Shown here piece after piece: positions 14,575 through 23,058 of a DNA stretch of 64,000 nucleotides. Each line of letters starts with the position of its first letter. Position 1 is the stretch's first letter. This DNA is from an uncultured Desulfosarcina sp. Its GTDB lineage: Bacteria; Desulfobacterota; Desulfobacteria; Desulfobacterales; Desulfosarcinaceae. Position numbers and translations under genes: made by a program. The DNA lies in the NCBI GenBank assembly GCA_963674945.2, contig CAXXWQ010000003.1, positions 2,208,001-2,272,000 of the forward strand. The letters are read 5' to 3'. Under the pieces are notes generated by a model, which was given only the letters and a program-made list of their open reading frames with translations, made no database searches and was not told the origin of the DNA.

Positions 14575-15321
14575 CTACTCGATTTCAACCTCCGCGGGGG
14601 CGATGATGTTCGGATTCTCTCTATCGGACAGTGCAGGCATGGAGATGGTTTTCAACTGCCAGCCACGATGTCGCAAAACCCCGGTAAAAGGTGGCTGGCC
14701 GACCACATTGCCCACCAGTTTGATGGCGCTTTGATCGAATCCCTGGTCAATCTGCACACGCTCCCCTTCGGCTTCTTTCATCACGGGCGCCAAAGCCAGG
14801 TAGCGGTCCACGGTCTTCCGGCAATTTTCGTGAATGCTGCGTACGGCTGCCCCAATCTGTGCATCCTGATACAAGGTAAGATCCTCCTGCAAGAAATCCA
14901 TGAGACGACCCTGGCGCTGGAGAACCGAAAAGAGATGGACAAACAACCGTTTTTCCTTGTTCTCCCGCTTGTCCCGTTGTGTTTCGGTTTCCTGTAAGGT
15001 TGCAGACTTTTTCTCAGGTTTGGCCACCTTGGACGGGGGCGGTTCCCTGTTGGCGACGAGAAGTTTGGTCAAGGTGTTTCTTTGAAACATCCAAACGAGG
15101 ATACCATACAAAAAAAGAAATGCGAACATACAGATGTAAATGACCGGGTCCATCGGCGTCCCCGGTTTCTGGGCCTGCCAGTAGAAGCCGGCAACGACGG
15201 CGAACAGGATCGTCGAGAAAAAACAGGATAGAAAAAAGGTGCGCAGGGAAAAAGACTTCAGTAACATATGAGGTTTCATCGATATTTGGCCTGTTGGGTT
15301 TTTTATTGAAAAAGACGTCAT
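14575..15321 (-). CDS. DUF2760-domain membrane protein
   Basis: Two N-terminal TMs; LQRQGRLMDFLQEDL..YQDAQIGAAVRSIH, LVGNVVGQPPFTGVLRHRGW, IIAPAEVE. Confidence 0.8.
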   Translation of the reverse strand: MTSFSIKNPTGQISMKPHMLLKSFSLRTFFLSCFFSTILFAVVAGFYWQAQKPGTPMDPVIYICMFAFLFLYGILVWMFQRNTLTKLLVANREPPPSKVAKPEKKSATLQETETQRDKRENKEKRLFVHLFSVLQRQGRLMDFLQEDLTLYQDAQIGAAVRSIHENCRKTVDRYLALAPVMKEAEGERVQIDQGFDQSAIKLVGNVVGQPPFTGVLRHRGWQLKTISMPALSDRENPNIIAPAEVEIE

Positions 15322-18986: not shown

Positions 18987-19014
18987 TTAAGTTTGCCGGT
19001 TCTGTCGTCGATAT
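18987..19014 (+). promoter_or_regulatory. Possible sigma28 (FliA)-like promoter
   Basis: TTAAG-N15-GTCGATAT (TTAAGTTT...GTCGATAT) about 160 bp upstream of the acidic-repeat gene. Confidence 0.4.
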
Positions 19015-19171
19015 CTTTACTGAATTAAACTCGTGACCGGGGCTATTTACTCTGTGACCGTGACCAATTCAGCGTGTGTGCACGGACCTGTGAGATCACT
19101 TGTCGGCAAGTCGCTTTCCAGAAAAGCATTTTTTTTATGCCGACAACGGCGTTGAGGTAAGCGAAGCGGTG

Positions 19172-21802
19172 ATGGCAAAAGACGAAGAAGAAATACTGGA
19201 CGAAGACCAGCAAAAGGCTTTCGATAGCATCATGGCCCAGATTCAGGGTGGTGATGGGGTTGCGGACGCGGTCGAGAAGCCGGCACCGGAGGGATCAACT
19301 GCGGTCGATGATGAGGTTGCTTTTGCCGCCGAACTCGAAAACGCTGCCCAGGAGGCGTCTGCCGGAAAAGCCGCTTCATCCTCTTCCGACGGAGCTACGA
19401 AGGACGATGAAGATGGCCTGGATGATGAGCAACAGAAGGCCTTGGATAGCATCATGGCCCAGATCGGGGGCGGTGATGGGAGTGCAAAAGAAGTCGAAGA
19501 GAAGGCCCGGGAGGAAGGGGCGGCGGTCGACGATGAGGTCGATTTTGCCGCCGAGCTTGAAAAAGTCGTCCAGGAGGCGTCCGCAGGGGAAATTGTATCA
19601 TCTTCTTCCAACGAAGTTTCGATTGACGAAGAAGACTTGGACGAAGACCAGCAAAAGGCCTTCGATAGCATCATGGCCCAGATCGGGGGCGGTGATGGGG
19701 ATGCGGAAAAGGTCGAAAATCCTGCCAGGGAGGAATCGGAAGCGGTCGACGATGATATCGATTTTGCCGCCGAGCTTGAAAAAGTCGTCCAGGAGGCATC
19801 CGCAGGGAAGGCCGGACCATCCTCATCCGAGGAAAGTTCGGATGACGGTGAAGTGACTCTGGATGATGAGCAGCAGAAGGCCTTGGACAGCATCATGGCA
19901 CAGATCGAGGGCGGTGATGGGGATGCGGAAACGCTCGAAGATTCTGCCCGGGAGGAAGGAGCCGCGGTCGATGATGAGGTCGATTTTGCCGCCGCGTTAG
20001 AAAAAGTGGCCCAGGAGGCATCTGCAGAAACGAACGCCTCATCCACTGCCGAGGAAGATTCGGATGACGATGAGGTGGGGCTGGATGATGAGCAGCAGAA
20101 GGCCTTCGAGAGCATCATGGCACAGATCAATGAAGGCAATAATGATACCGACGACAACGTCGACGAACCGGATGCCGACGCGGAGGATTCGCAAAGATCT
20201 GTGGAAATCGCCGATGAATCGAACGATTCGGAACCTCCGAGCGCCGTCGAATCAGAACAGGAGACACCGGCCGAAGAAGAAGTGCCAATCGAAGATATTT
20301 CCGATGAGATCGACGATATATTGGCGGAAGTCCGTGATGAGGAGGATGAGCCGGAAGAAGCCGATGATACGGGGGAAAAAGAGGATATTGTCGTCGCAGC
20401 CTTGAATGGTGGCACTTTGCCTCCGGAAGCCGGTAAAGATCAAAAGGATGAATCCGGCAAAGGGAAAAAGAGGACAACCACGAATCAGGAAAAATCGTCT
20501 GGCGAAAAAAAACAATCCAAATCAAAGAAAAAAGACGACACCCCATCTCCTGTTGCATCCAAGGGAACGAAGAGGGTCGAACCGTTGCGTGAGGCGGCCC
20601 CGACAAAGGCAAAGAGGAAGAATAAGAAGCGGGTCGTATTACTCTCGACGGGGTTTGTGATCCTGCTCTCCTTTGCAGGCTATTTCTTTTGGACGCAGAA
20701 AATCCAACGCGGATCCGAAAATACGACGGTACCAATCGCCGAAGCCGTGGTTCACAAAGTCCCGGAAGAAGTACACCCTGCTTCTTCCGACCCTGTGGAA
20801 CAGGCCTTCGTTGAAGATTCTTCCGATGTATCCAGGTTGAAAATGACTGCCGAGGCGTTGATGCGGCTGCGGGAAAGAGTGATGGAAAAGCAAACCGAGA
20901 TTGATGAGCTGCAAGGCTACTACCAAACGGGAATCGAGGCCGAGGTCAACGCCATCATGAAAATCGTGCAAGATGCCAAAATGGAGGAACGATCCCATGA
21001 GGCAGCCATGAAAGATCCTCGGATTCGGCTTGGATTGACGGCCATTCAACGGCGAGATTCCTACATCCAAAAGCTCAAAGAACCGGCAAAACAGCTTTTG
21101 GATAATGGTGAAGAGCTTTTGTTTTTATCGCGAAAAGCCGAGTTACTGGCCCTGATGGCTGAAAAGACAAGCGATCTGGAAATCGACGGATTCATCCGGA
21201 CAGCCGAGGAGATTGCCGCTTCCCATGGGGCTCACCTGGAAAATCTCAATATCGATGCCGATTCGGCCACGTCGGCTTCCACCCAATCCATTTGGCGGGA
21301 CATCATCGGACGGTTACCGAAAAAACAGGCAATTGCCTCCGTTGGAAACGTCGAGGCCGCAAAAACGGATAATTCGCAGATATGGAAACAAATCTGCGAC
21401 GGAGACCTTTCCCAGCGCCATCGTCTGACCCAATTAAATCCATCGGCCGCCAAGTGTCTGGCCGCATGGGATGGCAAGGACCTGTATCTTAACAATCTGA
21501 CGGAACTGTCGCCAGAGGTGGCCGCACAATTGGCGCAATGGGACGGTGATTGGCTGGGCTTGAACGGCCTTACGGAACTCTCCCCGGAGGCGGCGAGTCA
21601 TCTGGCTCGCTGGAAAGGAAAAAAACTTTCATTAAACGGACTCACGCGACTTTCACCCAGAGTCGTTGCAATCTTGTCCGAATGGAGGGGGGAGCAAATC
21701 GAACTCATCAACGTAAAACACATGGCGCATTGGGAGAATCAAAACACCCGGCTCTTCCTCTCGGAGGACTTGCAACGAAAACGCCTTGTCAAAGGAGACT
21801 AA
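19172..21802 (+). CDS. Single-pass membrane protein: N-terminal acidic tandem repeats, Lys-rich linker, TM, helical domain, 24-aa LRR-like repeats
   Basis: Five QQKA(F/L)(D/E)SIMAQI motifs; KAKRKNKKR then TM VVLLSTGFVILLSFAGYFFW; repeats LxLNxLTxLSPxxAxxLxxWxG. ATG 19172 preferred over TTG 19100. Confidence 0.85.
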   Translation: MAKDEEEILDEDQQKAFDSIMAQIQGGDGVADAVEKPAPEGSTAVDDEVAFAAELENAAQEASAGKAASSSSDGATKDDEDGLDDEQQKALDSIMAQIGGGDGSAKEVEEKAREEGAAVDDEVDFAAELEKVVQEASAGEIVSSSSNEVSIDEEDLDEDQQKAFDSIMAQIGGGDGDAEKVENPAREESEAVDDDIDFAAELEKVVQEASAGKAGPSSSEESSDDGEVTLDDEQQKALDSIMAQIEGGDGDAETLEDSAREEGAAVDDEVDFAAALEKVAQEASAETNASSTAEEDSDDDEVGLDDEQQKAFESIMAQINEGNNDTDDNVDEPDADAEDSQRSVEIADESNDSEPPSAVESEQETPAEEEVPIEDISDEIDDILAEVRDEEDEPEEADDTGEKEDIVVAALNGGTLPPEAGKDQKDESGKGKKRTTTNQEKSSGEKKQSKSKKKDDTPSPVASKGTKRVEPLREAAPTKAKRKNKKRVVLLSTGFVILLSFAGYFFWTQKIQRGSENTTVPIAEAVVHKVPEEVHPASSDPVEQAFVEDSSDVSRLKMTAEALMRLRERVMEKQTEIDELQGYYQTGIEAEVNAIMKIVQDAKMEERSHEAAMKDPRIRLGLTAIQRRDSYIQKLKEPAKQLLDNGEELLFLSRKAELLALMAEKTSDLEIDGFIRTAEEIAASHGAHLENLNIDADSATSASTQSIWRDIIGRLPKKQAIASVGNVEAAKTDNSQIWKQICDGDLSQRHRLTQLNPSAAKCLAAWDGKDLYLNNLTELSPEVAAQLAQWDGDWLGLNGLTELSPEAASHLARWKGKKLSLNGLTRLSPRVVAILSEWRGEQIELINVKHMAHWENQNTRLFLSEDLQRKRLVKGD
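19199..20130 (+). repeat. Intragenic tandem repeat, period 219-222 bp, four full units plus a partial fifth
   Basis: Unit starts at 19199, 19421, 19640, 19862 and 20084, each carrying AGCATCATGGC(C/A)CAGAT. Confidence 0.9.
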
Positions 21803-21805
21803 CGC

Positions 21806-22381
21806 ATGAGAAGTTCCAATATCTTCGGGCGGATTTTTTCGTTGGCGGTGCTTTTGTTTTTTTCCATACACCCCGCATTCGCAAAGACTGAAGACGATGG
21901 CGAGCAACTGCTAAAGACCATGGCCGAAATTTCATTGCTCAACAACCAAATGGCGCAGAGAAAGGTGGATGCCGAAAATATTCGGGATGCATTGATCAAA
22001 CAATTGAAGTCGATCCAGTCGGAGACACGAGATGAGCTGAAAAAGAAGAAGATCGGCAGTGAAAACAAAGCCAAAAAAGACCCGAGGATCCGGCACAATA
22101 TGATGCTCATTGCCGAGATCAGCGCCTATATCGACAGATACACGCAAAAGATTCGATACTATCGCGTGGCCTGCGACCGTCTTACGTATCTTTATCAGAA
22201 GGCCGACGATGATCTGAAGATCGTCAGTACGCTCTCCGGGTTGAAGATCGATGCCTTGATCGACCAGGCGAATCGACTCATCGACGATTACATGCCCCAG
22301 GCCCAGACCATACTCCTTTCTCCCCAAACGATCACCATTAAAGAGCCGGATCAGTATCTAAAAGGATTCGCGCTGAAATAG
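21806..22381 (+). CDS. Exported alpha-helical hypothetical protein, paralogous to a domain of the upstream protein
   Basis: Signal peptide ending PAFA; starts 3 bp after the upstream stop; KDPRIR segment aligns without gaps to the upstream protein. Confidence 0.8.
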   Translation: MRSSNIFGRIFSLAVLLFFSIHPAFAKTEDDGEQLLKTMAEISLLNNQMAQRKVDAENIRDALIKQLKSIQSETRDELKKKKIGSENKAKKDPRIRHNMMLIAEISAYIDRYTQKIRYYRVACDRLTYLYQKADDDLKIVSTLSGLKIDALIDQANRLIDDYMPQAQTILLSPQTITIKEPDQYLKGFALK

Positions 22382-22464: not shown

Positions 22465-23058
22465 ATGGCTGAAAGCAAGCAACCCGGATACGTAAAATCG
22501 GAAACTGTGATCTGGCTCGTCGTGGCATCCCTTTTGGTTGGATTCGTTGGCGGCGTCGCCTTCGGGATTTACAAAAGCGGGACCGTTCGCGGGCTTCAAC
22601 CAACCAGTGCCGAGGATTCGCAACGAAAGGCCGCCATCGAAGCACTTCAGGCCAGAATCCGTCAGGATTCCCAGGACCTGGATGCATGGATTCAATTGGG
22701 CCATCACTATTTCGACGCGGGATTGACCAAAAACGCCGTCGATGCCTATGAGAAAGCCTTGGCCATCGATCCGAATGATGCCAATATCTGGACGGATTTA
22801 GGGGTAATGTACCGAAGAAACGGTGATCCAAGAAAAGCGGTGGAAGCCTTCGACAAGGCCATCGCAGTGGACCCCGCCCATGAAATCTCCCGATTCAACA
22901 AAGGAATCGTTCTCTTTCACGACTTGCAAGACGAGGATGGCGCCCTAAAGGCATGGGAATCTCTGTTGGCCATCAATCCCGACGCCAAGACACCGGGCGG
23001 TCAAACCGTCCGGGAACTGGTGGACCATATAAAAAGCAACCATGGAAAAAACAAATGA
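22465..23058 (+). CDS. Membrane-anchored TPR protein
   Basis: AAGGAG RBS; N-terminal TM; TPRs (AWIQLGHHYFD, YEKALAIDP, WTDLGVMYRR, FDKAIAVDP). Confidence 0.85.
   Translation: MAESKQPGYVKSETVIWLVVASLLVGFVGGVAFGIYKSGTVRGLQPTSAEDSQRKAAIEALQARIRQDSQDLDAWIQLGHHYFDAGLTKNAVDAYEKALAIDPNDANIWTDLGVMYRRNGDPRKAVEAFDKAIAVDPAHEISRFNKGIVLFHDLQDEDGALKAWESLLAINPDAKTPGGQTVRELVDHIKSNHGKNK

Follow-up and report, generated by a model that had tools for sequence, protein, structure and literature searches.

Architecture and conservation of the gene pair

The window analysed here is a stretch of 64,000 nucleotides (nt) from an uncultured Desulfosarcina sp. (contig CAXXWQ010000003.1 of assembly GCA_963674945.2, positions 2,208,001 to 2,272,000 of the forward strand), and our subject is a pair of adjacent genes within it, which encode a large membrane protein and a small exported protein (Table 1). 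A preliminary description of this DNA had recognised in the large protein a very acidic repeated N-terminus, a lysine-rich stretch, one transmembrane (TM) segment, a helical domain and four leucine-rich repeats (LRRs) of 24 amino acids (aa), and 3 nt downstream of its gene a small open reading frame (ORF) with a signal-peptide-like N-terminus; each of these features is indeed present. Genomes, loci, proteins and families mentioned by code (G, L, P and f, respectively) carry this analysis's own labels.

Table 1. Coordinates of the gene pair, its domains and its flanking features within the window
Feature	Position	Strand	Basis or remark
Sigma28 (FliA)-type promoter motif, 8-nt box, 12-nt spacer, 8-nt box	18987..19014	+	Conserved upstream of the large gene
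Large bitopic protein, 876 aa from ATG	19172..21802	+	GTG at 19169 is a possible alternative start; same architecture at 79 loci
Acidic cytoplasmic repeat array, 222-nt unit, 4.2 copies	19196..20128	+	DNA repeat analysis
Lys-rich stretch before the TM segment	20432..20641	+	Residues 421-490, 24 K/R in 70 aa
Single predicted TM segment	20633..20698	+	Residues ~488-509, Kyte-Doolittle peak 2.15; also in homologues
Predicted periplasmic helical domain, paralogue of the small protein	20807..21346	+	hhalign; matching helix pattern in both AF2 models
Four-unit LRR domain with two-cysteine cap	21347..21799	+	LRR matches; AF2; two Cys conserved
Small exported paralogue, 191 aa	21806..22381	+	3-nt gap after the large ORF; predicted signal peptide, residues 1-26
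Membrane-anchored TPR gene	22465..23058	+	TPR Pfam matches; a neighbour, not a conserved part

The tail of the large protein is strongly biased in composition, with 140 Asp/Glu against 22 Lys/Arg in residues 1-420, and its repeat array holds five copies of a conserved 16-residue motif. The same motif is found, in one to six copies each, in 40 of the 79 homologues, which come from Desulfosarcinaceae and a single other genome, and is likely to be a docking helix. Tail length among the homologues ranges from 24 to 592 aa, and the tails are variable and of low complexity. The large protein has only one hydrophobic segment, and under the positive-inside rule the excess of Lys/Arg that precedes it, seen in 65 of 76 homologues, would leave the N-terminus in the cytoplasm; the N-in topology given in the preliminary description is further upheld by the cytoplasmic CheX domain fused to the N-terminus of some homologues. 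Beyond the helical domain, the C-terminal region displays the four 24-residue units and parallel strands of the LRR fold, its strands being spaced by 24 residues in the AlphaFold2 (AF2) model, with a Pfam score under the cut-offs. It aligns with FBXL2 over 136 residues (Z 11.5, root-mean-square deviation 3.8), and the two cysteines of the cap are conserved in 74 of the 79 homologues. This type of LRR recurs in long arrays on kinases (including Ser/Thr kinases), M56 peptidases and an extracytoplasmic function (ECF) sigma factor of other bacteria (P0123, P0124, P0210, P0242 and others); a profile made from it reaches 4223 representatives at E<=0.001, yet no Pfam model scores above its cut-off.

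The small protein, whose homologues are labelled 'hypothetical protein' (several of them from Desulfosarcina), has a hydrophobic region ahead of the mature part in 77 of 78 homologues. A shared 65-aa segment that starts with KDPRIR in both proteins (21011 and 22076) had been aligned by hand without gaps, and we recover exactly the 19 identities then counted. The Smith-Waterman score of the large against the small protein is 88, a value reached by 0 of 2000 shuffles (maximum 73). When alignments of 41 homologues of each protein were compared with hhalign, the helical domain of the large protein matched the small protein with a probability of 98.0 (E 2.2e-13) over 165 columns, which amount to the entire mature small protein; the profile-profile comparison offered earlier as a check is hence significant, and extends well beyond the segment first reported. 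Both AF2 models are confident, with a mean predicted local distance difference test (pLDDT) of 89.9 and 89.2, and their helices follow in matching succession. On account of the profile alignment, the shuffles and the matching helix order, the small protein is a full-length paralogue of the helical domain of the large protein rather than a case of generic coiled-coil likeness. A longer or fused form of the small protein was encountered weakly, as one 338-aa example among 7998 scored candidates, and this looks like read-through.

Neither window protein is recognised by any Pfam or NCBIfam family above its cut-off, and among 41 members of each protein no such family appears at E<=0.01 in more than 2 members. 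A search of PDB sequences with the small-protein profile gave a single match (E 0.15), Foldseek gave none at E<=0.001, and the fold searches returned generic helical bundles and LRRs. In the comparison with the PspA/Vipp1/ESCRT-III and BAR folds, the best helical rows were VIA (Z 11.8 over 88 residues), BAR (Z 10.0) and Vipp1 (Z 8.9), none of them higher than is common for helical proteins; the CdvB2, Vipp1 and BAR rows were judged to be matches of that generic kind. In the ESM Atlas the best matches fall below 0.9 and belong to unnamed clusters, those nearest to the LRR domain being mostly from Planctomycetota. The literature within our coverage, which leaves out most subscription papers, holds nothing on this gene pair, nor on a lineage-specific motor scaffold for Desulfobacterales.

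The small gene was matched in 58 of 65 Desulfosarcinaceae genomes; its profile finds 45 of 301 genomes of the order Desulfobacterales and 4 of 401 of the phylum, where a short and doubtful match in G278 (E 8.4e-4, 43 positions) was not counted as a carrier. Across 81 loci from many Desulfobacterales families the large gene is present in 79, the small gene in 78, and the two stand next to each other in 76, always on the same strand with the large gene first, so the pairing in other genomes anticipated in the preliminary description is general. Since loci were picked mostly through matches to the small gene, adjacency is best tested from that gene outward. Three of the five loci that lack one or other gene reflect assembly limits (two are halves of one genome on split contigs and one lies at a contig end); the others, L137 and L139, are taken up below. 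The large-protein profile, run on 52 further chosen genomes, added four carriers: two have a weak, divergent small-gene match adjacent (E 0.001-0.03), one has a similar-looking ORF without a profile match, and one lies at a contig edge. The pair is a real, conserved two-gene module that matches no named family.

A sigma28-type promoter motif and co-occurrence with the flagellum

A sigma28-like site upstream of the large gene had been reported before and is confirmed at the position given in Table 1; it resembles the sigma28 consensus as printed in the accessible text of PMC2859248. In leave-one-out scoring, 57 of the 69 loci that have upstream DNA show the motif ahead of the large gene with a score above the 99th percentile of shuffles, and a cruder count of consensus matches with control genes agrees. 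This conservation is the independent promoter result. A genome-wide ranking, for which the matrix was built without the window, places the window's site first among 347 matches above 13 bits (score 26.1), followed by the site of a response regulator-motA-motB operon (24.6). A DVU0524 FlgM-associated gene (22.2), flgM (15.7) and flagellin (14.0) also score highly, 13.9 being reached by 1% of 700 sampled upstream regions; the early genes flgB, fliL, flgF and flhA score 6.5 or less, and the region upstream of one che cluster only 1.9. The recovery of sigma28 targets in this ranking is partly built in, because the matrix was seeded with the sigma28 consensus. The genome encodes both FliA and FlgM, and judging by the conserved FliA-type promoter the pair appears to belong to the late flagellar regulon, whose sigma28-dependent genes are expressed once the hook-basal body is complete. 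Sigma28 sites precede flagellin in a related deltaproteobacterial genus (accessible part of PMC2577667). Several other high-scoring sites of this type precede genes without a motility annotation, and a scan for sigma70 promoters and terminators gave matches at chance level.

The same survey yielded observations on other genes of this genome. The response regulator of the PomA-like motA-motB operon, which heads it behind the strong sigma28-type site (G000:C4:139854-142627, L217), is a receiver-domain protein most like NosR-type cyclic di-GMP phosphodiesterases. Two unnamed small genes and a MinD/FlhG-like gene also lie behind strong sites (G000:C2:333092-333439, C3:1867646-1868233, C4:3136228-3136995) and are candidates for further late flagellar genes. 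A second, divergent MotA/MotB-like pair (G000:C2:295508-297181; L121:4155-5823) has no such site in G000 (score 7.5). In the flagellar cluster at G000:C4:185880-187625 (L219, L220), the flagellin N-terminus best matches PRK12688/PRK14708 and is followed by flbT and flaF, with fliA and flgM alongside; no fliD or fliS was recognised by eye in this cluster, where other gene labels were read from translations.

The distribution of the pair follows that of the flagellum. FliM is found in 42 of 45 carriers, as against 166 of 301 genomes of the order, and two of the three exceptions have FliG. Among the 65 Desulfosarcinaceae genomes, 55 have both the pair and FliM, 5 have neither, 3 have only the pair (two of these with FlhA) and 2 only FliM, giving a Fisher p of 1.3e-4 that is overstated because the genomes are kin. 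The five with neither and, in addition, G474 (altogether G024, G054, G474, G060, G041 and G006) lack FlhA as well as the pair and FliM; G024, G054 and G474 are 94-97% complete, G054 retains seven CheW matches, and G006 also keeps CheW. The FliM proteins of carriers form a score class (E 1e-73 to 1e-86, one partial) below that of most other FliMs, and a long branch parts those of family f1 from the 30 top-scoring ones. FlbT accompanies the pair in 34 of 49 carriers (48 of 301 genomes overall) and a FliY-type CheX in 38 of the 49, four of which came from a targeted search. From this pattern of FliM class, FlbT and FliY-type CheX, the pair tracks one flagellar sub-type, which may simply be one clade. 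For 15 of 48 carriers, those of f136 (0/4) and f170 (0/5) and G351 among them, no match to the CheA dimerisation domain was obtained. Those two families and G351 have flagellar genes, with no match to this domain in any of the 10 genomes; G489 also lacks CheW.

The predicted complex, the cytoplasmic tail and the gene neighbourhood

Complex modelling of the two periplasmic parts gave a score of 0.80, against 0.02 for the best of three controls; the runs share at least 98% of contacts, with a partner pLDDT of at least 87. In a benchmark that is only roughly valid for the alignments used here, 116 of 157 solved complexes score this high, as do 2 of 215 mismatched pairs. The two proteins are thus predicted to bind each other, in line with the hetero-oligomer suggested in the preliminary description; PDB searches found no complex resembling this pair. 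The predicted contact is heterologous and uses one face of each partner: a groove of the small protein receives the end of the large protein's second long helix. The equivalent, unused mirror faces, mapped through the hhalign register, are conserved too (in the large protein, a mean of 0.66 on this face as compared with 0.43 over the domain). There, Asp135 of the small protein, invariant in 76 of 76 homologues, would lie opposite Tyr584, Arg628 and Tyr631 of the large protein (conservation 0.95, 0.97 and 0.91), and from these faces we infer a second interface that would allow an alternating head-to-tail copolymer, either a ring or a filament. Covariation between the proteins (76 paired loci, Meff ~60) was dominated in its top pairs by a few columns; the top 100 include 5 at the predicted face and 10 at the mirror face, each against 4.6 expected, which is uninformative and was not counted as evidence.

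In certain homologues the cytoplasmic tail carries recognisable elements of the flagellar switch. An N-terminal CheX-like domain occurs on the large protein at 5 of 79 loci and in five further database proteins, omitting P0224, which looks like a truncated version of the protein at L127. CheX exceeds the Pfam cut-off in L127, P0223 and P0237, the last with two domains; on a quick tree of 86 rows the CheX label needs 3 changes, at least 2 of them forced by well-supported branches. These fused domains share 21-44% identity with the CheX-CheX-FliN protein of the genome, which NCBIfam places nearest FliY/FliN, and 11-25% with its other CheX domains. Among the homologues with such a fusion, L127, P0217 and P0237 retain the E-x-x-N motif, which has a role in CheX, and the other seven have it altered. 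The window's own large protein has no CheX domain detectable with Pfam. The gene for the CheX-CheX-FliN (FliY-like) protein is an orphan far from the flagellar cluster (G000:C4:1262176-1263543, L221); related CheX domains occur in 56 of 301 genomes and are kept in G054, which lacks FliM and FlhA. Furthermore, with a profile of the FliM N-terminal (FliM-N) peptide, built from 60 FliM loci and assessed against shuffles, 28 of 75 tails score at p<=0.05 and 17 at p<=0.01; of 66 acidic stretches taken from the genome as controls, 2 and 1 do so, respectively. The available text of two sources has this FliM motif bound by both CheY-P and FlhG (bioRxiv 2021.07.06.451403; PMC12826062).

Genes around the pair vary by family. 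In G528 the pair and a second motA/motB-like operon, which includes an SLT gene, are transcribed in opposite directions away from each other, and the pair lies about 5 kb from the CheX-CheX-FliN gene and about 22 kb from flbT/flagellin. The tetratricopeptide repeat (TPR) gene downstream, considered in the preliminary description as a possible partner, is present at 20 of 81 loci, lies within 126 nt of the small gene at only 3 of the 81, and is absent from all 40 loci outside Desulfosarcinaceae; it therefore stands outside the module. The TPR, SixA-like, NUDIX, guaA and efp neighbours were all rejected as core parts, each being restricted to some families. In Desulfosarcinaceae the small gene is often followed by a gene for a SixA-like histidine phosphatase (21 loci, e.g. 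L054:4742-5203), an arrangement seen neither in the window nor outside the family. A DUF2760 gene occupies 14575-15321 of the window on the minus strand, and several relatives add an Hsp70-like gene, upstream of a fabH-like gene and the pair. An unnamed TM and coiled-coil protein encoded downstream of guaA (G000:C4:137488-138432, assigned by eye; L132:9863-10747) adjoins the motAB operon in G000 and is near the pair at 17 loci of other families.

A putative accessory of the flagellar motor

The conserved promoter, the co-occurrence with FliM, the CheX fusions and FliM-N-like peptides of homologues, and the neighbourhood in G528 speak for the motility link drawn in the preliminary description, and we consider a flagellar connection of the pair quite likely. 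Because its promoter motif is common to the motor genes, and because it has mostly been lost along with the flagellum, the pair is likely to be a new membrane-anchored motor accessory. Its more specific form, a late-class accessory scaffold with a cytoplasmic docking tail, is our preferred but tentative reading, in which we infer both that the proteins sit at the motor and what the tail would bind. The helical domains of the two proteins would alternate head-to-tail to form a periplasmic scaffold, which the TM segment of the large protein would anchor beside the stators. The acidic tail might then dock switch-level regulators, such as CheY-like proteins or FlhG, next to the motor; the accessory would be added to a finished basal body, and its tail would concentrate these regulators there. 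Such an accessory fits best with the late-type expression together with stator genes, the predicted anchored hetero-oligomer, and a tail that mimics docking elements of the C-ring. The preliminary description thus stands as regards paralogy, co-occurrence, the hetero-complex, N-in topology and motility, and gives way on the TPR component and on its framing as a general envelope system, which is too broad for evidence that points to the flagellum.

Several results weigh against this reading, in addition to the kinship that inflates the Fisher test. In G058, which is 94% complete, the pair and its promoter site occur with no match to FliM, FliG, FlhA or MotA, which may reflect an unbinned contig or a true exception; in G597 MotA is present, with FliM, FliG and FlhA unmatched. 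Conversely, the pair is unmatched in flagellated f158 (0/6), f162 (0/5), in three f136 genomes and in the higher-scoring FliM class, and motors of these types therefore do not need it. At L137 and L139 the large gene has no small gene beside it. Apart from G528, none of the 81 loci has a flagellar gene in the fetched flanks, and the motAB-like operon in G528 is a second, divergent set (28% to the genome's MotA). As for the tail, four f5 CheX domains and those of P0223, P0228 and P0251 have lost the Asn of E-x-x-N, and the window's own tail is not significant against the FliM-N profile (p=0.42), having the related 16-residue motif instead.

Two of the competing explanations keep the pair at the cell pole or in chemosensory arrays. 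It might be a polar hub that works like HubP/FimV while being unrelated to them, its oligomer held at the pole and its acidic repeats recruiting FlhG or ParA-like ATPases and signalling proteins outside the motor. HubP is likewise a single-pass protein with a long acidic repeat array (PMC8789113, in the part open to us), and the N-terminal motif of FliM is bound by FlhG in addition to CheY-P (bioRxiv 2021.07.06.451403, likewise in part). The genome has FlhF and FlhG-like genes, with a second MinD/FlhG-like gene behind a strong site of the same promoter type, and f170, a family without a CheA match, has strong FliM-like peptides. From textbook knowledge of the sigma28 class, on the other hand, expression after the basal body would come too late for choosing the flagellar site; no LysM, FimV or other peptidoglycan-binding domain was found with Pfam/NCBIfam in the full protein or in 41 periplasmic parts, and G054 keeps its chemosensory genes without the pair. 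We therefore regard such a hub as unlikely, if worth keeping in view, and of the 'motility-linked landmark' proposed in the preliminary description the motility link holds while the landmark is weakened by the late timing and by the lack of matches to HubP's defining domains. An anchor of the chemoreceptor array would account for the acidic tail and the CheX fusions, and in some bacteria che genes are typically under control of the sigma28 type (PMC2577667, in its accessible part); it is nonetheless most improbable, as it is argued against by the 15 of 48 carriers without a CheA match, by G054 and G006, which keep CheW without the pair, and by the low promoter score of the che cluster mentioned above.

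The two others are an envelope role and a sensor. The pair could belong to the sigma28 regulon yet act in the envelope away from the motor, in attachment, aggregation, or sealing of the envelope around the filament or after its loss. In this genome, sites of this type are also found ahead of genes without an obvious part in motility, the pair mostly lies at a distance from flagellar clusters, and G058 keeps it without detected flagellar genes; this would, however, leave the repeated FliY-type CheX fusions and the FliM-like peptides unexplained, and we hold it to be decidedly unlikely. Alternatively, the large protein could be a transmembrane sensor whose periplasmic LRR detects a ligand or surface and whose tail alters the phosphorylation of CheY-like proteins at the motor, independently of an array of CheA and methyl-accepting chemotaxis proteins. 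That would agree with the same LRR type being found on Ser/Thr kinases, M56 peptidases and an ECF sigma factor elsewhere, with the fused CheX domains of L127, P0217 and P0237 whose E-x-x-N is intact, and with retention of the pair in the carriers without a CheA dimerisation-domain match, among them G351 with its CheX fusion. Most homologues, the window's included, nevertheless have no catalytic domain, several of the fused CheX domains are degenerate, and a long, low-complexity tail that varies so widely in length would be a poor conduit for a conformational signal, which makes a sensor improbable.

As a motor accessory, the pair would work like several known periplasmic scaffolds. PflA/PflB of Campylobacter, the MotX/MotY T-ring of Vibrio and the FlbB/FlcA collar of Borrelia similarly combine a single-pass protein with an exported periplasmic partner in one lineage (PMC7990780, in the text accessible to us). 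The pair, which has its promoter motif in common with motAB, shows no sequence or fold match to them: it joins paralogous helical domains and an LRR to a long cytoplasmic docking tail, sometimes with CheX, and neither protein has the TPR match expected from PflA/PflB, FlcA or MotC/MotK. Long periplasmic helices are also a feature of the FlgY/MotE/FlbB E-ring, whose proteins exist in signal-peptide and membrane-anchored versions (available part of PMC13023049). However, the MgtE_N head of that group is missing here (no PF03448 match in 41+41 members, and AF2 gives a helical bundle plus LRR), the flanks of the 81 loci contain no fliJ or fliK match, and the promoter is of the late type; the genome's sole MgtE_N match lies in a 459-aa frame, probably an MgtE transporter.

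HubP/FimV resemble the large protein in having one TM segment and a long, acidic, repeat-rich cytoplasmic region (PMC8789113, as far as accessible), whereas the tail is here N-terminal rather than C-terminal, the periplasmic side has an LRR and a dedicated exported paralogue, and neither LysM, the FimV core or C-terminal domain, nor a TPR C-terminus was found in the full protein or the 41 periplasmic parts. FliY and FliM combine an N-terminal CheY/FlhG-binding peptide with a CheC/CheX-like domain, and some homologues of the pair join a FliY-type CheX and FliM-N-like peptides in the tail; in contrast to them, the large protein lacks a FliN/SpoA domain and is joined to TM and periplasmic domains instead of the C-ring. 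ZomB/MotV and FipA are likewise single-pass, lineage-restricted regulators of motor switching or of FlhF (FipA: PMC11620751, in part), but are essentially devoid of a periplasmic domain and carry TPR or DUF2802, neither of which is matched in the pair. The pair most likely represents a new lineage-specific flagellar accessory, falling outside each named family with which it was compared.

A bolder possibility, which we think improbable, is that the large protein founds a new class of transmembrane motor regulators: LRR sensors would be held round the motor by a ring in which the two paralogues alternate, and a tail mimicking FliM/FliY, with docking peptides and in some lineages an active CheX phosphatase, would tune CheY-like regulators. 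If true, flagellated Desulfobacterales, including lineages without detected CheA, would receive sensory input at the motor that bypasses the chemoreceptor array. More generally, lineage-specific scaffolds explain stator recruitment and high torque in polar motors, and have been dissected in few model genera. Desulfobacterales are abundant sulfate reducers of sediments, and the pair offers a concrete candidate for a motor scaffold in them, with a combination of folds unlike the TPR and MgtE_N scaffolds and a tail that has repeatedly acquired FliY-type CheX domains and FliM-like peptides. With such a tail the pair would couple a periplasmic scaffold to switch control, and its persistence in flagellated lineages where CheA is not detected poses the question of how their motors are steered.

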